A model generated the notes under the pieces. The model was not told where the DNA came from and did not search any database. It saw only the letters and a list, made by a program, of their open reading frames with translations. A stretch of 38,365 bases of DNA from assembly GCA_964644265.1 (NCBI GenBank), contig CAZXUX010000002.1, positions 1 through 38,365 on the forward strand, given 5' to 3'. Within the stretch, counting starts at the first letter, position 1. The number at the start of each line of letters is the position of its first letter. Of this stretch, positions 1,618-37,452 are shown piece by piece. This DNA comes from an uncultured Gammaproteobacteria bacterium (GTDB lineage Bacteria; Patescibacteriota; Patescibacteriia; UBA9934). Position numbers and translations under genes: made by a program.

Positions 1618-3744
1618 CTACTTGTTGGCGATTGCGGCGTTCTGCAGCTCGGGGTGCCTGGCGAGCACCTCGGGCGGGAGCTTTGCCGTGCAGTCGCAGG
1701 GGAACGTGTCGGGGTTGAGCTTGCACACGGTGCCCGGCGAGAGCTCCTGAGCACGTTCGTGCTTGGAGATCTTCGCCTGGTACTCGTAGCAGACCCGTTC
1801 CCGAACGGTGAGCGGGACGTCGATGGCCTTGGCGGTCTCGACCACGGCCTTCTCGCTCGCGCCGCGGGCCAAGGTGACGGTCTGAGCGACCGCCACGTCA
1901 CCCATGACAGCGTGAGCCGCGTACGAGGTGCCGCCAACGCCGATTCCGAGAGTCAGCAGCAGCGCCGCCAACACAGAACCGGCGGTGATCATGCCCTTCA
2001 ACGCGCGCCGTCGGAAGTCGACCGAGAGCAGGCGACGATCGTCGTGCTCGGAGGTCAGGTTCCACCCCCGCACATACAGCTCCCCGACCATGAGGACGAG
2101 GAACCCGGCGGAGGCGAAACAGACCGAGACGAAGATGTTTCCCCGCCCGATCAGCATCCAGACGTTGCCAGCAGCGGCAACGACCGTGGAGACGATGGTG
2201 ACCGTCAGCGCCCGTTGGCGCAGGAACGACACCGGCTCCTTCTGCTGGACGAGGTCTTCGACCGCAGCGGTCGAGCTTCGCTCTCTGAGCGGAAGCCCGC
2301 CCAACTTCCTGAAGTAGTTGCCGATGTCGAGCCCCGTGCCTCCGATGAGGCCGGTGCCGTCAGCCGGATCCAGGAAGTTCTTGAGCTTCTTGAACAGGGT
2401 CGGGACCCCGTCCAAGGCAACGATCAGCAGCCGCGACACGCAGATGCCGACGATGCCCGCGTTGAGCCAGAAGTAGCTCCCGTCCCTGAACCCCCACAGA
2501 AGGGTGGCCAGGCCGGATAAACCAGCGAAGCCAACCAGACCCATGAACAGGATCACGTAGAGGATCGGCAGACCCAGGAACACCAGGCCGATGATCCAGA
2601 ACGCGACGGTCCTCGGCCACGAGGGCTCGGTGATCAACTTCGGTGCTGCCTCGAGCCAGCCAGTCAGCTTGTTGCGGAAGCTGGCACGTCCGGCGGCCGT
2701 TGACGAGTCGTCGATCCAGTCGCGGGCCGTCAGCGCCATGTAGAGCGGCGTCGAGATCTTGTCGCGTGCTTCCGCACGGAGCAAGACCTCGAACGGAGCG
2801 AAGATGTCGATCACGTCCTCGACGCAGTCGAGGTACCTCCGACGCTGCGCGTGCAGGGGGTGATCGCCGTCGATCGCGACGTTGGAGCGCTCCAGCCACT
2901 GCAGCGCCTCGATGCAGTCGGGGAACTTGTCCTCGTCGGGAGGCTCGATGTCCGACAACGCCTTGAGCGCGGCCGGGCACACGTTCAACCGTTCCAGCGC
3001 CGCCTTCAGGGCGTGCGGCTGGCGCGGCCGATCGATCTTGTCCTCGAGCCGGGCGTTCAGGATGCGCCAGAACAGCGCCAGCTTCCGCTGGTCGTCCGGG
3101 CTCATGGAGCCGAAGTCGACCTTGCTCGGCTTCGCGGTGTTGTCGATCTCGACGACGCCGTGTTTGCGCCATTTCGGGAAGCAGTCGGGGCACAGGGTAA
3201 CCCAGCCATCCTCGATGGCATCCTTGTCCCATTCGATTACCGACAGCAGGTTATGCATCTCCACTCCCTTCGGGAGTTGGGTGGAGCAACCTTTACGGTG
3301 AATCGTCCGACTTACCGGATCCTTCCAACCGTTCTTGTCCTCCAAGTCCTGCTCGACCTTGGCCTGGCTTGCCGCCAGGGGATCCCGCACCACGACCTCG
3401 ACCTCTTCCGCGGTCTTCGCGTTCTCGATCATGCGCCTCATGCCATCCGGCAAGCCGCGCAGCATCGGGGGAACAGCGAACCGAAACAGGTAGGGCAACT
3501 TGTGGTTGCGTTCGATCGCCTCTGCCAGCATCATCGCGGCACCGACTCGCATCGGCTCCGGGATGTTGAACAGGATGCGGGCGATCGTGCCAGCCGTGGT
3601 TTCCTTGGTCAGGAGCACGGCGGGGTTGATCTGAGCCAGGAGTGCTTCGAAGCCCTCCTCGGACATCTCGCGAACCACGTCGGCAATGAAGCCGATACCC
3701 TTGTTTTCGAGCGCCTCGGAAGAGGACAAAGCGTAACGAGCCAT
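1618..3744 (-). CDS. Hypothetical large polytopic membrane protein (ORFan). Soluble N-terminal ~380 aa with a Cys/His cluster (HRKGC...CPDC), then >=7 TM helices, then a Cys-containing C-terminal tail
   Basis: Long GC-rich ORF. Start moved to ATG 3742-3744 because GGAGG lies 6 nt upstream (ggaggccaccATG). No family recognised by eye. Confidence 0.75.
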   Translation of the reverse strand: MARYALSSSEALENKGIGFIADVVREMSEEGFEALLAQINPAVLLTKETTAGTIARILFNIPEPMRVGAAMMLAEAIERNHKLPYLFRFAVPPMLRGLPDGMRRMIENAKTAEEVEVVVRDPLAASQAKVEQDLEDKNGWKDPVSRTIHRKGCSTQLPKGVEMHNLLSVIEWDKDAIEDGWVTLCPDCFPKWRKHGVVEIDNTAKPSKVDFGSMSPDDQRKLALFWRILNARLEDKIDRPRQPHALKAALERLNVCPAALKALSDIEPPDEDKFPDCIEALQWLERSNVAIDGDHPLHAQRRRYLDCVEDVIDIFAPFEVLLRAEARDKISTPLYMALTARDWIDDSSTAAGRASFRNKLTGWLEAAPKLITEPSWPRTVAFWIIGLVFLGLPILYVILFMGLVGFAGLSGLATLLWGFRDGSYFWLNAGIVGICVSRLLIVALDGVPTLFKKLKNFLDPADGTGLIGGTGLDIGNYFRKLGGLPLRERSSTAAVEDLVQQKEPVSFLRQRALTVTIVSTVVAAAGNVWMLIGRGNIFVSVCFASAGFLVLMVGELYVRGWNLTSEHDDRRLLSVDFRRRALKGMITAGSVLAALLLTLGIGVGGTSYAAHAVMGDVAVAQTVTLARGASEKAVVETAKAIDVPLTVRERVCYEYQAKISKHERAQELSPGTVCKLNPDTFPCDCTAKLPPEVLARHPELQNAAIANK

Positions 3745-5749: not shown

Positions 5750-6289
5750 ATGTTCCACCTGTTCACGTTCGTGGTCCTGTTCTTCATCGGCTCGGCCTAC
5801 GCGGTCGACCCGACGGCGCCCCTCGCACCCGGCACGTTCGTGCTCGGGAGCCTGCCGCCGGACATGAGTCCGAACTGCAAGGAGGGCGTCAACAAACGCC
5901 CGTACTTCATCTCGCCAACCGTCGTCGGCGTGGCCACCCACCAGGTGTGGGACGGCAAACCTCCGAACGAAGGTGGTCACATGGTGGTGATCCGGCAGGG
6001 TGATAAGCTCGTGCCGGTCATTCCCGCAGCGGCAGTCCTCAAGCGGGATAGCAGCGGCAAGCCGATCGAAACGGATCCAGTGCGCTTTTGGTACTGCCTG
6101 AGCGCGACCAGGGTCAACTTCGGTGGCACGGTCCTCTCGGGGCCGAACAACAATCCCGTGACGGATGGTCCCGTCACTCTCTACCTGGGTGAGTTTCACG
6201 AAGTAGGGGCCTGCGGCAACATCTTCGTCGACCAGGCCGATCCGCGCCACAGCAGCGTGGAGTTCAACTCCACGCGCTGCGGGCCCTGA
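5750..6289 (+). CDS. Hypothetical secreted protein, 4 Cys (ORFan), translationally coupled to 5040..5747
   Basis: GGAG overlaps the upstream stop (ggagTGAgcATG). Signal peptide MFHLFTFVVLFFIGSAYA/VD. It is the in-frame tail of spurious track ORF 4973..6289. Confidence 0.7.
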   Translation: MFHLFTFVVLFFIGSAYAVDPTAPLAPGTFVLGSLPPDMSPNCKEGVNKRPYFISPTVVGVATHQVWDGKPPNEGGHMVVIRQGDKLVPVIPAAAVLKRDSSGKPIETDPVRFWYCLSATRVNFGGTVLSGPNNNPVTDGPVTLYLGEFHEVGACGNIFVDQADPRHSSVEFNSTRCGP

Positions 6290-6596: not shown

Positions 6597-6940
6597 GGTG
6601 GGACTTCGCCCCATCCCCCCTGATACTTTCTTTCGGAACAAAGAAAGTATCCAAAGAAACTACGTAGCCGCCTATTCGACTCTACCGGGGATAGGCCAGG
6701 CAGAACTCGGGCAGTCCATATTCCGGTCAATACTCTACTACCTGAGGATTACATGACCCTTTTTGTATTGACCGGAGATGGCCTGCGTTGCCTCGTTCTA
6801 TTGCCTGGCCATAACCCCGTCATATTCGAGGACGGCGTGAACCAATGCGTGAGGGCTCATGTGACGCAATCTCTCGTTGCAACCTGTCGATTGCCACCAA
6901 ACGGACCCCTCGCTGTCGCTCGGGGTCTGGCTCGTGAGAT
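6597..6940 (+). repeat. Structured dispersed repeat, copy B (its 5' leader is displaced to 6374-6400 by the 6401-6590 insertion)
   Basis: Nearly identical to copy A through most of its length. All helices are intact (12-bp hairpin 6622-6651, 12-bp helix 6722-6733/6765-6776). Confidence 0.85.
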
Positions 6941-7057
6941 ATGACGCTCCCTGGCCTTACGGCCTTGAGGGTATCCGTCATAAGTTTTTATTGACGCTTA
7001 CGCTTCGCGTTCCCTGAGCTGAGCCCCCGCCCTTACGGGACGGGGTTTCAAGTGGAA

Positions 7058-7090
7058 GTAATAAAAAAGACTCCCGTGAGAGAGTCTTGC
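7058..7090 (-). terminator. Rho-independent terminator of the pilin-like operon
   Basis: Minus strand reads aagactc-tctcacgg-gagtctt followed by ttttttatt, about 15 nt after the stop at 7106. Confidence 0.75.
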
Positions 7091-7105
7091 TGCTTTGAAA
7101 AATGT

Positions 7106-12177: not shown

Positions 12178-12592
12178 GGGGCTTCGCCCCTACCCTAAAA
12201 AATACTTTTCTTTCAATCACCAAAGAAAAGTATCCAAAAGAAGTCTCTGCCGCCTTTCGAATCTGGCCGGGGATAGGCCAGGCAGAACTCGGGCAGAACT
12301 AAATCTAGCCAATTCTTATTCCTGAGGATTACATGGCTCTAGTTGTATTGACTAGATGTAGTTCTACATTCCTTCGTTCTATTGCCTGGCCATAACCCCG
12401 TCATATTCGAGGGCGGCGTGAACCGATGCGTGAGGACTCAGGGTGAGTAACCTCTCGTTGTAACCTAACGATTGCCACCAAACGGACCCCTCGCTGTCGC
12501 TCGGGGTCGAGCTCGTGCAGGTGTGCGATGGACGCGAGACGACCCTGACCCCGCACCTTTTGACTTTGTCGACTGAAAAAGGTGCGGGGGAA
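12178..12592 (+). repeat. Structured dispersed repeat, copy C (most diverged full copy) with an extra 13-bp 3' hairpin
   Basis: Collinear with A and B from ggggcttcgcccc (12178) to tcggggtc (12508). Carries compensatory changes in helices. Extra hairpin ccccgcacctttt..aaaaggtgcgggg at about 12548-12590. Confidence 0.85.
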
Positions 12593-32246: not shown

Positions 32247-32723
32247 ATGCTTTCTATGTTAGCTGCGAAGTATCGATTACAAAAAGATGTAGACATTGAG
32301 CGCGTTTTAAAAACAAAACGCGGTGTTTTTGATACTGCTTGTGGCATTAAGTACGCAAAGAATGCTTTGCCTAACTCTCGTTTTACAGTAGTTGCTGGAG
32401 TTAAGGTAAGCAAGAACGCGGTAGATAGAAATCGAATGAAACGGCAGTATCGAGAGATTTTGCGAAAGCTCTTGCCGCGGATTACTGCTGGTTACGACAT
32501 TATGTTGCTTATTGGTAAACCAGCACTCACGCTTACCTATGACGAAAAAGAACAGCGACTCAGCCGAGTCTTCGCTAAAGCCGGGCTCTTGGTCCCTCCC
32601 TTCGCGAAAGGAGGAACGGCTTCTGCGCTTCGCCCGGCAACTGGCCGGACTGGCTCGACAACTGGCAACAGCACCAATCGTTCTGTATCAGCACACCCTG
32701 TCGCCCGATCACGGGCCAAGTAA
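32247..32723 (+). CDS. rnpA: RNase P protein component with an unusual ~45-aa low-complexity C-terminal extension
   Basis: KYRLQKDVDIERV, SRFTVVAGVKVSKNAVDRNRMKRQYREILR (RNR motif). Synteny after rpmH. Confidence 0.85.
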   Translation: MLSMLAAKYRLQKDVDIERVLKTKRGVFDTACGIKYAKNALPNSRFTVVAGVKVSKNAVDRNRMKRQYREILRKLLPRITAGYDIMLLIGKPALTLTYDEKEQRLSRVFAKAGLLVPPFAKGGTASALRPATGRTGSTTGNSTNRSVSAHPVARSRAK

Positions 32724-32883
32724 GGCGCTTTACCCGTACGGTTTTTGTAGATTTTATCCGAGCTGTTCGGAATACACTCGTTTGGCCATACTCAAATACG
32801 GTGTTGTCGTTGGCTATATTATGGGGTTTTGGCGAGTTTTGCGTTGCAATCCATTTTCAAGAGGTGGTATAGATAAGCCTTGA
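32539..32883 (+). CDS. yidD: Membrane protein insertion efficiency factor YidD (start uncertain)
   Basis: IVLYQHTLSP....CRFYPSCSEYTRLAILKYG..G......RVLRCNPFSRGGIDKP is the YidD signature. First ATGs are at 32512 and 32539. Confidence 0.85.
   Translation: MTKKNSDSAESSLKPGSWSLPSRKEERLLRFARQLAGLARQLATAPIVLYQHTLSPDHGPSKALYPYGFCRFYPSCSEYTRLAILKYGVVVGYIMGFWRVLRCNPFSRGGIDKP
32862..32879 (+). repeat. 18-bp direct repeat, copy 1 (last codons of yidD)
   Basis: aggtggtatagataagcc is identical to 34521-34538. Confidence 0.9.
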
Positions 32884-32891
32884 GAATAAAT

Positions 32892-32921
32892 AAAAAAAGG
32901 GCAAGGCTGGCGCTTTGCCCT
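32892..32921 (-). terminator. Terminator of the GNAT gene (convergent with yidD)
   Basis: Minus strand reads agggcaa-agcgccagcc-ttgccct followed by ttttttt. Confidence 0.65.
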
Positions 32922-32929
32922 CTAGAGTT

Positions 32930-33733
32930 CTACTCAATTTTTTCCGGATTTTGCCAGTACATGAGAGCGCCGTTGTCTAGACTCTCTGCGTCGATCATGT
33001 AGTTGGGTATATGGCCGACAACCGCAAGCGGTCGACCTAAATGTCTGGCTCGCGACCAGGGCCTGAGTCCGCGGTCGAGCGGTGGATACTTGAGTATGGT
33101 GCCGATTGCCTCACGCGCGGTGGTGGGGCCGGAACCATCGTAGGGGTGCAGACGTTGGCCGCGCTGGATTGCATCAACGACCCTTCGGAAGTCGAAGTTT
33201 CGAGTTTCTCCGTTTGGCGTCACAAGGTGCAGCCCTTCGGGGCTCATGCGCAAGTGAACGTAGTGTTCGGGAGAAAAGATTTCGTTGAACCGATGGTAGT
33301 CAGGTAGGCGACCGGCGGCGTAGAACGCGTTGAGTTCCAGCTGCACTGTGAGTTTCAGGGCAGTTTCGATGGCAAGTCTGCCAGCGCCGCGTCCGCGATA
33401 GAATGGATGACAGCCCAGGTTTACACCGTAGAGATGTTCGCCGTTAAGGTTGTGGCTGCGGCTAGCCCAGCCATTGCCGCTAACGATGGGCCAGCTGAGT
33501 TGATCGTTCGGATTGTAGTGAATCCGCACGGTATTGAACATGGCGGCCAGAGCGTTTGACTGGCTGTCGATCACCAGGATCTGACCGGCCGGAAAAACTC
33601 TCACGGCATCTTGAAATTGTTCGAGGGTGTAGGTGTAGTCGTCGGCAATTCCAGCCCAGGCGGCTTGTTCCATCTGCAGCATGAGCGGTTCGTCGCCCGG
33701 TTTTGCTGCGCGTGCGTAAAATTGTTGACTCAC
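32930..33733 (-). CDS. GNAT-family N-acetyltransferase with a C-terminal extension
   Basis: LGCHPFYRGRGAGRLAIE matches the acetyl-CoA-binding R/QxxGxG/A motif. GTG start with GGAGG 5 nt upstream. GC-rich. Confidence 0.65.
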   Translation of the reverse strand: MSQQFYARAAKPGDEPLMLQMEQAAWAGIADDYTYTLEQFQDAVRVFPAGQILVIDSQSNALAAMFNTVRIHYNPNDQLSWPIVSGNGWASRSHNLNGEHLYGVNLGCHPFYRGRGAGRLAIETALKLTVQLELNAFYAAGRLPDYHRFNEIFSPEHYVHLRMSPEGLHLVTPNGETRNFDFRRVVDAIQRGQRLHPYDGSGPTTAREAIGTILKYPPLDRGLRPWSRARHLGRPLAVVGHIPNYMIDAESLDNGALMYWQNPEKIE

Positions 33734-33856
33734 GTTTGCCTCCGATTCTCGCTACGAGAAAAGTTGTGATGGCTGCGGGAATAGTATACCTTGTAGTACT
33801 TGTAATTTTTTTTGTTTTATTTAAAATTGCGTGCAAGTCCAAAAATTGGAGGTTCA

Positions 33857-34462
33857 GTGGATCTTTATGCTTGGTTGGGGGTAGTCGCCGGCCTTGTGGG
33901 ACTGTTGGCCTTTGGGCCGTACATCATGGCAACGCTGCTTGGTGTTACGCGCCCGAATCGGGCTACTTGGGCCATCTGGAGTCTGGTTGGGGTGATGTTG
34001 GCTACGAGCTATTTCTCCGCGTCGGGAGAGAGGGTTACTATCTGGGTTCCGATCAGCTACGTGATCGGGCCGATTGTGACCGCGTTGTTGTCCATCTGGT
34101 ACGGGGTTGGTGGGTGGACGAGGCTTGATAGGCTCTGCTTGATCATTGCCGCGATTAGTGCGGTGATGTGGTGGTTGACGGGGCAGCCGGTCTTGGCTCT
34201 GCTGCTCAACTTGCTGGTTGATTTGGTTGGGGTAATCCCCACTCTAAGGAAGGTTTATAACGAGCCCGAGAGTGAGGATCGACTGGCGTGGTCGATGTCC
34301 TGCCTGGCCAACGGCTTGAACGTTCTGGCGCTTAATCCGTTCAGGATTGCAGAATGGACGTTTGCCGAGTCGGTATACCCGCTCTACATGTTCGTTGCGG
34401 TTGGTCTGGTGACCTTTTTCATCTACGTACGTGGTTACCAGCTTCGTCCCCCTGCGGTATAG
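33857..34462 (+). CDS. Hypothetical ~6-TM membrane protein
   Basis: GTG 33857 preceded by GGAGG (33849-33853). About six hydrophobic helices. No family assigned. Confidence 0.6.
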   Translation: MDLYAWLGVVAGLVGLLAFGPYIMATLLGVTRPNRATWAIWSLVGVMLATSYFSASGERVTIWVPISYVIGPIVTALLSIWYGVGGWTRLDRLCLIIAAISAVMWWLTGQPVLALLLNLLVDLVGVIPTLRKVYNEPESEDRLAWSMSCLANGLNVLALNPFRIAEWTFAESVYPLYMFVAVGLVTFFIYVRGYQLRPPAV

Positions 34463-34520
34463 GTAGTTGATTACCTGGGGGATTTTTGTTATGTGTTAAT
34501 TGGTCATAGGTTTTTTCTAA

Positions 34521-34538
34521 AGGTGGTATAGATAAGCC
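34521..34538 (+). repeat. 18-bp direct repeat, copy 2 (duplicate of the yidD 3' end)
   Basis: aggtggtatagataagcc. Upstream ttttctaa also resembles ttttcaag before copy 1. Confidence 0.9.
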
Positions 34539-34564
34539 GTGATACATTTGGTGTGAGGTGAAGA

Positions 34565-35041
34565 ATGAGTGACAGTGAGTCTGGTAAGAAGCGGGTGGCG
34601 GTGCTGTTGGGGCTGCTGGCGATGTCGCTTGTGGCTTTGGGGCTGACCGTCAGCTGGCGAGTTGGTTGGTGGGAGTTTGAGGTCGAGCAGCCTAGATCGG
34701 CACTGCTGGCCAGTAGCCACAAGGAAGCCTTGCGGCAGCTGGTTACGCAGCATCCGGATCCGCGGATCTCCGCCGATTTGGTGGCCGAGTGGAACGCGGG
34801 AACCATTTGGGTGCTGCCGGCCGATCTACTGGACGGCCAGGTGGCCGTGTTTCAGGAGCTCGATACGCGCGAGGCTTACGCGCGATATCGCAGGCGACCG
34901 GAAACTGGCGTGCAGACGGTGCTACTTGTGTCCACGCAAGAGATCGATGCCGCACAGAGCGATCCGTTGGCCAGGCAAGGCCTGGAGGCTGATCTGCTCA
35001 AGACTTACGAAAGCTTTGTGCTTCGTGACAGCGCCCGGTGA
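34565..35041 (+). CDS. Hypothetical N-terminally anchored protein
   Basis: GAGGTG upstream of the ATG. Single TM (VAVLLGLLAMSLVALGLTV). GC-rich. No family recognised. Confidence 0.55.
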   Translation: MSDSESGKKRVAVLLGLLAMSLVALGLTVSWRVGWWEFEVEQPRSALLASSHKEALRQLVTQHPDPRISADLVAEWNAGTIWVLPADLLDGQVAVFQELDTREAYARYRRRPETGVQTVLLVSTQEIDAAQSDPLARQGLEADLLKTYESFVLRDSAR

Positions 35042-35080
35042 TATGGCTAGCCATTGCCGGGTGTTTTTATTGAATTTTGT

Positions 35081-35109
35081 TTAAAAAAATACCCCGCGTG
35101 TTGCGGGGT
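35081..35109 (-). terminator. Rho-independent terminator of the aminotransferase gene
   Basis: Minus strand reads accccgc-aacac-gcggggt followed by attttttt. Confidence 0.75.
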
Positions 35110-35121
35110 GGGAGGTGTGCG

Positions 35122-36450
35122 CTACTTGAGCGAGTCGAGGCCGGCGAAGAAGCGGTTGAGGCCGCGTTCGATGTAGTCCGGCTCGACGGCGACGGAGATG
35201 CGGACCCAGTGGGGCTGGCGGAAATCACCACCGGGAACGATGGCGACGCCACAGCTTTCGGACAGATATAGGCTGAGATCCTTTACGTCCATGATGTTCG
35301 CATCGATCCAGTCGGCGACGTTGACGAAGACGTAGTAGCCTTGGCCGCTGATGAAGCGAAATCCACGCTCCCGCAGCATGCGGATCGCGAGGTTCCGACT
35401 CTTGTTGGTCGGCACCGTAACGCGGAGGCGCCAGGGGTGCTGCCAGGGGTCCGGGCTGCCGTAGAAACTCAGGGCGACGGCTTCGCCGAGCGGGGCCGGC
35501 ATGGTGACATGCGACGGCACGGCGCGCATGGTGTGGGCCAGTTCCGGGTTGCAAACCACCAGGTGAGCATCGCGCAGGTTGCTGCCGCCGATCACCTTGG
35601 CGGTGCCATCCATAGCCGTCACGGCCAGCCGAGCTTTGTCGCTCAGGCTGGCGAGCAGACGCGGCAGGTTGTAGCGCGGTGCATCATCGTCGATCACCAT
35701 CTGGTAGATGAGATCGAGAAGGACGTGCGGAATGCCGCACTTCACGGCGTGCTCGATGAGGTTCCGAAGTTCTTCTTCGGTGTGATAGTGGCCCGTCGGG
35801 TTGCCCGGCGAAGTCAGGACCATGGCCGCAATCGGTCGGCCATCGCTGCGAGCCTTGTGCGCGCAGGCGTTGATGCCTTCCTCGGTCAAGCAGAAGCTCT
35901 GCTCTTCTTTGCCCGGAGCCATGAGCACGTTGCGTCGTGCCTGGTAGAACAGCTGACCATAGCTCGGCCAGGGTGCTGCCGTGGTCACGACGTACTCACC
36001 GATGCTCGGCACGATGCAGGTGGCCCAGCGGTAGAGCGCTTCGCGCCCGCCGCAGGTGATGATGACTTGATCCAGCGTAGGCTGACCGGGTTCTCCGGTG
36101 AAGCCGTAGTAGTTCCGGTACAAGGCATCGCGCAGCCGCGCGTCACCGTGCGGATGCTTGCTGTACTTGGTGCAGTGGTGGTCCGGCAGGAATCCCGACA
36201 GGCTCTCGATCAGTTCCTGCTTGGAGATCCCCGGCAGGCTCATGCCGCCGTCTCCCTGGGACAGGTTGTAGACCACGTCGTTCTGGTTGCGTTCCAGGTA
36301 GCGATCGAGACCGCCGCTGATCAGGAACATCTGGGAGGTCGCGATGTTGCGAACACCGTCGAAGTCGTCGAGATAGTCGAAGTTGATGTAGGGCACCCGC
36401 TGCTCGGGTTTGTCGAACGGCTGAGCTTCCCAATCCGAATCTTCGGACAT
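35122..36450 (-). CDS. PLP-dependent aminotransferase, class I/II fold
   Basis: LTSPGNPTG motif and lysine segment DGTAKVIGGSNLRDA (SxxK..G..R pattern). Start set to ATG 36448-36450 with AGGAGA 5 nt upstream. Confidence 0.75.
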   Translation of the reverse strand: MSEDSDWEAQPFDKPEQRVPYINFDYLDDFDGVRNIATSQMFLISGGLDRYLERNQNDVVYNLSQGDGGMSLPGISKQELIESLSGFLPDHHCTKYSKHPHGDARLRDALYRNYYGFTGEPGQPTLDQVIITCGGREALYRWATCIVPSIGEYVVTTAAPWPSYGQLFYQARRNVLMAPGKEEQSFCLTEEGINACAHKARSDGRPIAAMVLTSPGNPTGHYHTEEELRNLIEHAVKCGIPHVLLDLIYQMVIDDDAPRYNLPRLLASLSDKARLAVTAMDGTAKVIGGSNLRDAHLVVCNPELAHTMRAVPSHVTMPAPLGEAVALSFYGSPDPWQHPWRLRVTVPTNKSRNLAIRMLRERGFRFISGQGYYVFVNVADWIDANIMDVKDLSLYLSESCGVAIVPGGDFRQPHWVRISVAVEPDYIERGLNRFFAGLDSLK

Positions 36451-36651
36451 GAGGTCTCCTGTAGTTGGGGTGAAAGAACCGCGTAGGAAGATAGCAAGTC
36501 GGCCTAAAAACGTCCATATAGGAAAGGCCGCCCGAGGGAATTCCCGGGCGGCCAGTACGTACGTTGCGGTCACTTGATGGATGTCTCAAGTGAGGTAATT
36601 ATGGCAAAAAGCTTAAAATTTGGCAATGTTTAAAATGAATATAGGAAGATT

Positions 36652-36900
36652 TTAACGCAATTTACTTACATCTGTTCCATCGGGGATTTCGAGGTGCTTG
36701 ACCTTGCTGGAGTGGCCGCGGCGTAGAACAACAAAAGTTTTTGGAATCCCCAAGTTTTTAGCGACAAGATTTATAAGTTCTTGGTTGGCTAGATTGTCGC
36801 GGGCTGGTGCGTGAAGAGTAGCCACGAAGGTTTGTCCATCGAGGGATGAGATGATTTGAGATGTTTTGGCGTTTGGTTTGCAGTGGAAGACGAGGATCAT
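36652..36900 (-). CDS. DUF167 (YggU-like) protein
   Basis: Pattern V.V.P.AK...I......G.....L.APA..G.AN..LI..LAK.LG...S.V...RG..S..K is typical of the family. Confidence 0.7.
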   Translation of the reverse strand: MILVFHCKPNAKTSQIISSLDGQTFVATLHAPARDNLANQELINLVAKNLGIPKTFVVLRRGHSSKVKHLEIPDGTDVSKLR

Positions 36901-36923
36901 AGTGCGAGCGGATCTGTGTAAGC

Positions 36924-36996
36924 GTCCCTGAGCGACAGCGAAGGGTCCGTTTGGTGGCGGTCGTTAGTTTGCGTCGAGAGGTTACTCGACCTGAGA
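36924..36996 (-). repeat. Inverted partial copy (3' module) of the structured repeat (copy D), overlapping the dcd-like stop codon
   Basis: gtccctgagcgacagcgaagggtccgtttggtggcggtcgttagtttgcgtcgagaggttactc is the reverse complement of the 3' module of copies A-C, with few changes. Confidence 0.8.
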
Positions 36997-37353
36997 AAAA
37001 ACTATTTTTACAAAAGTTTGCTCCGCCTTAAAAGTAACAACTTCTTGCGAATTATTGATAACAGAAAGTTTTAGCTTGCCCTTAAATCCTGGTTCTACAA
37101 AACAGTCGGTCATCAGAGCGTCGACTCCCCTTCTGGCGATGCTGCCTCGAGTAAACAATATGCCGCAGATGCTTGAGCCAAGACCCAGCTTTTCATTGGT
37201 TTCGACCACAGAAAAGACTCCTGGTTCGAGCGTAAGGTCACGATCGATCGACAAGGTGTAGCTGGCCTCTTTGAGGCGATCCTCGGAGAAAGGCTCAATT
37301 GTTATCTCACCAGCTTTGATGCGTTCGATGATTGAGGAGGCTTTGAGGGCCAT
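36982..37353 (-). CDS. Compact dCTP deaminase / dUTPase-superfamily protein
   Basis: MALKASSIIERIKAGEITIEPF...SYTLS...LEPG.F....T.E...L......G.L..R.S.AR.GV......V.PGFKG.L.L...N pattern. Start set to ATG 37351-37353. Confidence 0.7.
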   Translation of the reverse strand: MALKASSIIERIKAGEITIEPFSEDRLKEASYTLSIDRDLTLEPGVFSVVETNEKLGLGSSICGILFTRGSIARRGVDALMTDCFVEPGFKGKLKLSVINNSQEVVTFKAEQTFVKIVFSQVE

Positions 37354-37452
37354 AATTTGAGGTGTTATCGAGATTCTTCGAGTCATCACTCCCCCACGCC
37401 ACCACTTGAGGGGTCCTTCGTTGTCACTCAGGAACTGGATGCGCGTCAAGCG

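Follow-up and report, generated by a model that had tools for sequence, protein, structure and literature searches.

We observed that the 3′ end of yidD is present twice in a 38,365-nt contig of an uncultured bacterium that GTDB places in Patescibacteriota (UBA9934; GenBank CAZXUX010000002.1, positions 1 to 38,365, hereafter the window). One copy completes the gene. The other is an orphan fragment 1.66 kb away, and between the two lies a module of two genes, one for a GNAT-fold protein and one for a membrane protein with seven transmembrane (TM) helices. When all the readings that involve such a joint are taken together, the repeat is probably the footprint of an insertion joint at the yidD end. 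As a more specific account we tentatively favour, at a level somewhat short of probable, that the module came in again from a near relative, through homologous recombination on one side and an illegitimate end-join on the other, and that this re-import orphaned the yidD end of the recipient. An earlier note, made without database searches, had proposed a GC-rich island of 1.6 kb that was integrated site-specifically into the end of yidD. Its idea of an insertion joint at this gene end is partly supported by our analysis, with an island that is larger and older than first described.

The 18-mer AGGTGGTATAGATAAGCC was found by sequence search of the window at 32862-32879 and again at 34521-34538, on the + strand in both cases, as the earlier note had reported. 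The similarity, already remarked on there for the bases upstream of the cores, covers 30 nt in all, of which 27/30 are identical (TTTTCAAGAGGTGGTATAGATAAGCCTTGA at 32854-32883 and TTTTCTAAAGGTGGTATAGATAAGCCGTGA at 34513-34542). Copy 1 (32854..32883, + strand) consists of the last nine codons of yidD and its TGA stop, with the exact 18-nt core at 32862-32879. It encodes the ..GGIDKP end of YidD, as claimed, and the gene itself (32512..32883, + strand; open from 32512 and overlapping the tail of rnpA) is supported by a match to Pfam PF01809 (E 1.4e-21), the YidD domain being residues 50-122. When both copies are translated in the frame of yidD, copy 1 reads F S R G G I D K P stop and copy 2 reads F S K G G I D K P stop. 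They differ at three codons (TCA/TCT, AGA/AAA and CCT/CCG), twice synonymously and once by an R/K exchange. Copy 2 (34513..34542, + strand; core at 34521-34538) lies in the spacer between the 7-TM gene and a gene that we call p158, with its stop codon 22 nt before the p158 ATG. Because an in-frame TAG (34507-34509) stands two codons 5′ of it, copy 2 is a fragment of the yidD 3′ end and not a gene, in agreement with its earlier placement in non-coding DNA.

A chance origin of the repeat could be ruled out by shuffling and by its uniqueness. With up to three mismatches allowed, 0.01 matches to the 18-mer were expected in shuffles of the window, and 0/100 shuffles gave two. The whole assembly, of which the window is contig C2 (955,678 bp in 79 contigs, 95% complete), holds only these two copies with up to two mismatches allowed; the 18-mer is not a common genome-wide repeat. 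Other samples of this species yielded six or more independent contigs with the same structure, and an assembly artefact is therefore ruled out as well. Position 34515, in the flank of copy 2, is polymorphic between two haplotypes, and the core is invariant.

The locus was then compared across the genus. In 12 genus-relative loci the gene order is conserved, with dnaA (leftward), rpmH-rnpA-yidD (rightward) and a leftward DUF167 (YggU) gene. The last of these, at 36652..36900 in the window (− strand; Pfam PF02594), forms the conserved right flank of the site and is convergent with yidD. In G014, G002 and G018 the two genes yidD and DUF167 meet, or almost meet, at their 3′ ends. Across species the junction is empty in three, holds 0.5-1.2 kb of unrelated cargo in five, and holds 3.7 kb in the window, and this convergent junction next to oriC is a variable hotspot. 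The lineage-specific segment of the window (32884-36651) carries four genes: those for the GNAT-fold protein (−), the membrane protein (+), p158 (+) and a pyridoxal phosphate (PLP) aminotransferase (−). Its GC content is 55-67%, against about 47% in the flanks. Since the GC-rich tract continues to about 36550, well past copy 2, this copy lies in the middle of the tract and not at its end. The repeat does enclose exactly the GNAT-fold and membrane protein genes, as first described, but the GC-rich segment measures 3.7 kb and is not confined to the bracketed part.

The closest known relative is L027, a Logan contig (dnaA 94% identical in amino acids), which is also the only other source of a GNAT homologue with more than 50% identity. 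Its gene order is yidD, GNAT (leftward), 7-TM (rightward), p161 (rightward), p178, p93 and DUF167 (leftward). Between the window and L027 the amino acid identity is 56% for the GNAT-fold protein and 66% for the 7-TM protein, and 67% for rnpA, 62% for yidD and 63% for DUF167. The two module genes of L027 have 57-60% GC, against 47-50% in the L027 flanks. The two genes, which the earlier note took for foreign DNA, are not recent arrivals of this kind, since L027 carries them at the identical junction, equally GC-rich, with a divergence similar to that of rnpA, yidD and DUF167.

The nucleotide alignment with L027 is continuous from rpmH through yidD into the GNAT gene, with 68-76% identity on the left flank. 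On the other side, beyond copy 2, p158 and L027 p161 have 32% amino acid identity (E 6e-17) and nucleotides that are not alignable, and non-homologous genes follow; homology with L027 is thus conserved on the left side of the insert only. No second yidD end was found in L027. The best ungapped match in its spacer is 15/30 (p about 0.08), and a degenerate right-hand attachment site (attR) was rejected there as not significant. The yidD end of L027 is 21/30 identical to the orphan and differs from both window copies at 9/30 positions. With the module and without the repeat, L027 has a donor-type layout. The donor-type allele itself would have a yidD ending in ...CCT TGA, followed by the GNAT terminator and no orphan.

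In G004 (dnaA 86% identical), the gene immediately after yidD is p237, which has the orientation of yidD; the leftward DUF167 comes next, and there is no module. The p237 protein is homologous to p158 (21% identity, E 1e-5), and the two have an N-terminal anchor and the motif HPDxR[IV]SxD in common. Because yidD in G004 directly precedes a p158 homologue, the older gene order would have been yidD-p158, with the GNAT/7-TM pair inserted between the two genes. Copy 2 and the 22 nt that separate it from the p158 ATG resemble this old yidD-p158 junction. As to the empty site with a single copy that the earlier note proposed to look for in related genomes, genus relatives lacking the module, G004 included, have one yidD end, and none of them carries both copies; a near-identical empty allele was not found.

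The duplication and the module differ in age. At the four-fold sites of dnaA the window and L027 are identical at 65/188 (34.6%), and their silent sites are saturated. By this yardstick, a neutral orphan that predated the split between the window and L027 could not have stayed 27/30 identical. As the orphan has kept this identity despite the saturated silent sites, the duplication is far younger than the module at the locus, and a single ancient integration that left an attachment-site scar does not fit the ages. The data comprise two sampled haplotypes and one close relative (L027). As the duplication is present in both haplotypes, it is older than their separation.

The haplotypes also show a mosaic. 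Their divergence is 7.7% in rnpA (32357-32615) against 0.27% over 32616-37390, which covers yidD, the GC-rich segment and DUF167. The boundaries in the density of single-nucleotide polymorphisms (SNPs) are sharp, at 32616 and about 37390, and divergence resumes at about 37391. Such a distribution of differences suggests that the island region was recently swept by recombination. Copy 1 and copy 2 differ by 10%, a value comparable to the divergence between alleles at the locus (7.7% in rnpA). DUF167 is 80% identical to that of G004 and 63% to that of L027, the reverse of dnaA (86% and 94%, respectively), and the two flanks of the hotspot differ in ancestry. Both the SNP boundaries and this discordance show that homologous recombination is at work here. 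A cluster of 7 SNPs in 262 nt was also noted, which ends at the left flank of copy 2.

Under the re-import reading, copy 2 would be the original 3′ end of yidD, displaced by the GNAT-fold/7-TM module that was spliced between yidD and p158. The donor DNA would have come from a near relative that already had yidD-GNAT-7TM, and the conserved rpmH-rnpA-yidD flank would have served as the anchor for a RecA-dependent crossover. At the far end, the DNA would have been joined illegitimately at the T-run 34511-34516, as the hypervariable p158 side offers no homology. With the joint 30 nt before the recipient yidD stop, 30 nt would have been doubled, such that the donor or hybrid copy completes yidD and the recipient copy precedes p158. 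The event would be recent, long after the split from the nearest known relative (where the module was already present) and before the haplotypes diverged. We define the recipient-type allele as a yidD ending in ...TCT AAA ... CCG TGA, then TACATTTGG-p158 (...CCGTGATACATTTGG-p158). Matches above cut-off were obtained for ComEC, DprA and RecA, that is, for machinery of DNA uptake and recombination. The T-run at the left edge of copy 2, set against the TTTT in yidD, is compatible with microhomology but not diagnostic of it; what we infer from the locus is a donor, a crossover on one side and a joint at microhomology.

This process corresponds to homology-facilitated illegitimate recombination (HFIR), as defined in PMC3240628, and HFIR has been proposed as the origin of the strings of orphaned 3′ regions in Rhs and type VI secretion system (T6SS) loci (PMC5361080). 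The locus resembles HFIR in natural transformation (Acinetobacter, S. pneumoniae, P. stutzeri) and the orphan arrays of Rhs, contact-dependent inhibition (CDI) and T6SS loci in its conserved anchor gene and non-homologous far end. As in those systems, a displaced fragment of the old gene end lies downstream, no integrase is needed, and competence and RecA genes are present. Unlike in the Rhs/CDI/T6SS arrays, the anchor here is the housekeeping gene yidD beside oriC, where those arrays have a toxin gene; the orphan measures no more than 30 nt, and the module consists of an enzyme and a transporter (both putative). We know of no demonstration of HFIR in bacteria of the candidate phyla radiation (CPR). 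The locus also resembles flexible genomic islands at conserved hotspots, given the differing cargo in nearly every species of the genus and the SNP and phylogenetic mosaics. Ordinary two-sided replacement of flexible islands, however, leaves no duplication, and the window locus has one.

Several observations weigh against the re-import reading. Neither a donor nor a recipient-type (empty) allele was found in the collections searched, no empty-site strain was found among the p158 homologues or the contigs with identical rpmH, and both haplotypes carry the duplication. The proposed joint and the exact core are separated by 8 nt, in which the simplest model expects identity, yet two of the three differences between the copies fall there. 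They have to be put down to later mutation (position 34515 is indeed polymorphic). The yidD-p158 order is taken as ancestral from one outgroup and a homology of 21% identity (E 1e-5). Measured frequencies of HFIR are low (PMC5361080). Across the genome, orphan gene ends show no enrichment, with 13 at gene ends against 10-15 at control positions, and we therefore claim no general mechanism. Finally, the footprint alone cannot separate HFIR from integrase-mediated integration.

We therefore have to weigh the site-specific alternative, in which the 1.66-kb module is an integrase-less, cis-mobilisable element that was put into the yidD 3′ end by a recombinase acting in trans. The 18-nt core would then be the segment of identity between the attachment sites attB and attP, the element would carry a replacement gene end, and repeated excision and re-integration would keep the cores identical. 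The predicted circle joint is ...GGTTTTTTCTAA-core-TTGAGAATAAAT... and the predicted empty site is ...CCATTTTCAAG-core-GTGATACATTTGG... The layout is the classic one, with flanking direct repeats, one of which completes the target gene with a regenerated stop codon, and with an exact core and diverged, frame-preserving arms. The module is also bracketed exactly, and relatives without it have one copy. Some members of the genus have extra, clustered tyrosine recombinases, so integrase-bearing elements do circulate.

The enzymes and sites that this alternative calls for were, however, not seen. No recombinase domain was found in the four genes of the segment, and the 95%-complete assembly has no tyrosine or serine recombinase by the PF00589 and PF00239 profiles, which agrees with the earlier statement that no integrase remains in the element; none lies in or beside the module. 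The genus-wide recombinase is one syntenic Xer-like gene, present in all 25 relatives searched. Both this gene and yidD could be placed in eight genus genomes, where they share a contig at a distance of 14-16 kb; the Xer-like gene of the window species probably lies just beyond the end of contig C2. Scans of metagenome, genome and viral contigs with the 30-mer (flank positions free) and the 18-mer returned only unrelated sequences, several of them coding for GGIDKP in other proteins, and a blastn search of the module against phage and plasmid records gave no match; no attP-like or empty-site sequence was thus recovered from these sources. Apart from these unrelated matches the core was found at this locus only, and the sister species L027 has the cargo without a repeat or an attR. 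As read from the letters, the 30-mer has no recombinase-type dyad symmetry common to both copies. Site-specific integration into the yidD end, as proposed earlier, is left with no positive evidence on these counts, and we consider it unlikely, though it is the main rival of the re-import reading.

One viral contig deserves mention here, as it could favour an attachment site. L037 (IMGVR_UViG_3300046001_006175) is a 12-kb phage-like contig (GC 41%) with major head and tail-fibre-like genes, and it ends exactly with TCAAGAGGTGGTATAGATAAGCC (12243-12265), a 23-nt exact match to window 32857-32879 in copy 1. The match stops at the base where the window copies diverge, and lies inside a 3′-open reading frame that reads ...VLRNSRGGIDKP. 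This could be a coincidence or an attachment-related branch of the assembly graph. No related contigs that would extend L037 were found.

Other mobile-element models were considered and dropped. Integrative mobile elements exploiting Xer (IMEX), with dif-like repeats of 28-30 nt, are alike in having no integrase of their own, flanking repeats of about 30 nt and a genus-wide Xer-like recombinase. The window locus is unlike them in lying beside dnaA/oriC and not at the terminus, and in having no shared arm dyad around a central spacer; a Xer/dif-like site was dropped. A transposon target-site duplication was rejected as well, as the repeat is 30 nt long and imperfect and neither a transposase nor terminal inverted repeats were found. 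An integron cassette was dropped along with these models on grounds of symmetry, length, position and missing enzymes.

A second case of gene-end duplication was observed at the same hotspot in G013 (L016, contig C59), where the 3′ end of DUF167 forms a 76-nt direct repeat (5854-5929 and 6664-6739). The repeat is 80% identical overall: its first 31 nt are exact, the tail beyond them is diverged but coding-like, and each copy finishes with a stop. It brackets an insert of 810 nt with one GC-rich open reading frame of 186 aa, for which no family match and no homologue in the genus were found. Orphan gene ends have thus been seen twice at this hotspot, with different targets (the yidD end in the window, the DUF167 end in G013). 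The similarity of the duplication is a point for site-specific integration, but the target sequence differs, and different targets at one site argue for a homology-driven over a sequence-specific process.

The two cases also admit a further reading, in which tiny integrase-less cassettes of one or two genes serve the yidD/DUF167 junction, each with a replacement 3′ end, and the old end is orphaned; the phage-like contig would be a possible carrier. We regard this as quite improbable. If true, insertion in ultra-small bacteria would include a gene-end-targeting mechanism that has not been described for them so far.

Two further orphan 3′-end fragments were noted in the assembly of the window (G000), at C18:6466-6614 against 6960-7100 and at C56:2527-2654 against 2977-3104. 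These orphans are about 135 nt and 127 nt long, 78-87% identical and 450-490 nt downstream of the intact gene. A similar W..D....F/V..LR motif closes both parent proteins, and an N-gap lies within one of the pairs. The fragments may represent C-terminal modules that were displaced, or else strain-mix scaffolding. A search for repeats at the hotspot in G004, G005, G003 and G006 gave nothing relevant except a perfect 55-nt pair in G005 (L018 5510/5665). Perfect 55-nt repeats 155 nt apart also occur in this assembly, at C1:25335/25490 and C17:2386/2541, and all these pairs look like k=55 assembly artefacts rather than biology.

We also evaluated two other explanations. Local copying unrelated to the arrival of the module, by templated patch or slipped-strand repair of 30 nt or as the residue of a mostly deleted tandem duplication, would agree with the youth of the repeat relative to the module. 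The flanks of copy 2 have counterparts in the L027 spacer (the T-rich terminator tail and the TTTGG-GTGAGGTGA leader), and about 50 nt stand in the window where L027 has about 16 nt, which resembles a small indel, but the MAFFT alignment of the spacers is poor. No bacterial process is known that commonly puts a direct 30-nt copy 1.66 kb away, and the position at the module/p158 boundary, the direct orientation and the stop 22 nt before the p158 start would be left unexplained. Local copying is thus an improbable source of the repeat.

Alternatively, copy 2 may have been kept for a function, such as a promoter, an operator or an RNA-binding site for p158 within the yidD end. Two −10-like boxes, TGGTATAGA and TGATACATT, lie within copy 2 or adjoin it. 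The latter (34540..34548, + strand), read by eye from the sequence, is a candidate extended −10 box for p158 that fits the pattern TGnTAnAnT and overlaps the TGA stop of the orphan. A terminator-like hairpin follows the 7-TM gene, so p158 needs a promoter of its own, and the core is invariant in both haplotypes where the left flank varies. On the other hand, the consensus promoter scan made no call at TGATACATT or elsewhere in copy 2, no Rfam match was obtained, and the fold is no better than that of shuffles (z −0.64). L027 and G004 have a homologous gene without such a copy, and identity at six silent codon positions of the core is not explicable by separate coding and regulatory selection. 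We conclude that a retained function is very unlikely to be the explanation.

As to the genes of the segment, the left edge of the module is a GC-rich hairpin (32898..32921; fold −18.2 kcal/mol) that is the terminator of the GNAT-fold gene, as its minus-strand T-run reaches the yidD stop codon. L027 shows the same layout of stop, A-run and hairpin. The GNAT-fold protein (32930..33733, − strand; 267 aa) taken singly scores 18.5 bits, below the Pfam cut-off of 20.7, but the GNAT call made earlier is confirmed at the level of the fold by the family profile. We found 421 remote homologues at E≤1e-3, and Acetyltransf_1 was matched by 10/29 GNAT-fold homologues. The family profile matches PDB entries 7ucl, 2ree (CurA) and 6mfc (GphF), with E values of 6e-19 to 3e-14, and the protein resembles the GNAT domains of the CurA/GphF decarboxylating loading modules more than ordinary N-acetyltransferases.

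The membrane protein (33857..34462, + strand), earlier described as having six TM helices, is modelled with seven long ones (AlphaFold2, pLDDT 92.8). The best Foldseek matches are KDELR, cystinosin and SWEET (TM-scores of 0.54-0.66), and the model points to a PQ-loop/SWEET/KDEL-receptor-like fold and a putative small-molecule transporter. Its family has 48 homologues in varied genomic contexts, scattered through CPR genomes. A paralogue with 30% identity was noted on C19.

To the right of copy 2, p158 (34565..35041, + strand) encodes an N-terminally membrane-anchored protein with no assigned function, homologous to p161 of L027 and p237 of G004; no homologue outside this cluster was found in 5.8 billion proteins. 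The class I/II PLP aminotransferase (35122..36450, − strand; Pfam PF00155, E 1.2e-21, with all NCBIfam matches below cut-off) lies outside the repeat pair and inside the GC-rich variable segment, and was found in only 1/40 relatives, at another locus. The gap between DUF167 and dcd contains a dispersed structured repeat of about 73 nt (36922-36995), with copies of 82-86% identity on C2 (at 1412, 6868 and 12437), C8 and C31.

The practical value of the finding is limited, as it brings no new enzyme or system and the mechanism is inferred; the footprint is a fresh example of an already known kind. It does offer a caution for genome scans, since the GC-rich DNA and the flanking repeat had suggested a fresh foreign island, while the cargo is old at the locus and the joint alone is young. 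If the re-import reading is true, the locus holds a clean and datable joint, and ultra-small uncultured bacteria would remodel a variable site beside the origin by one-sided recombination of taken-up DNA, with no mobile-element enzymes.

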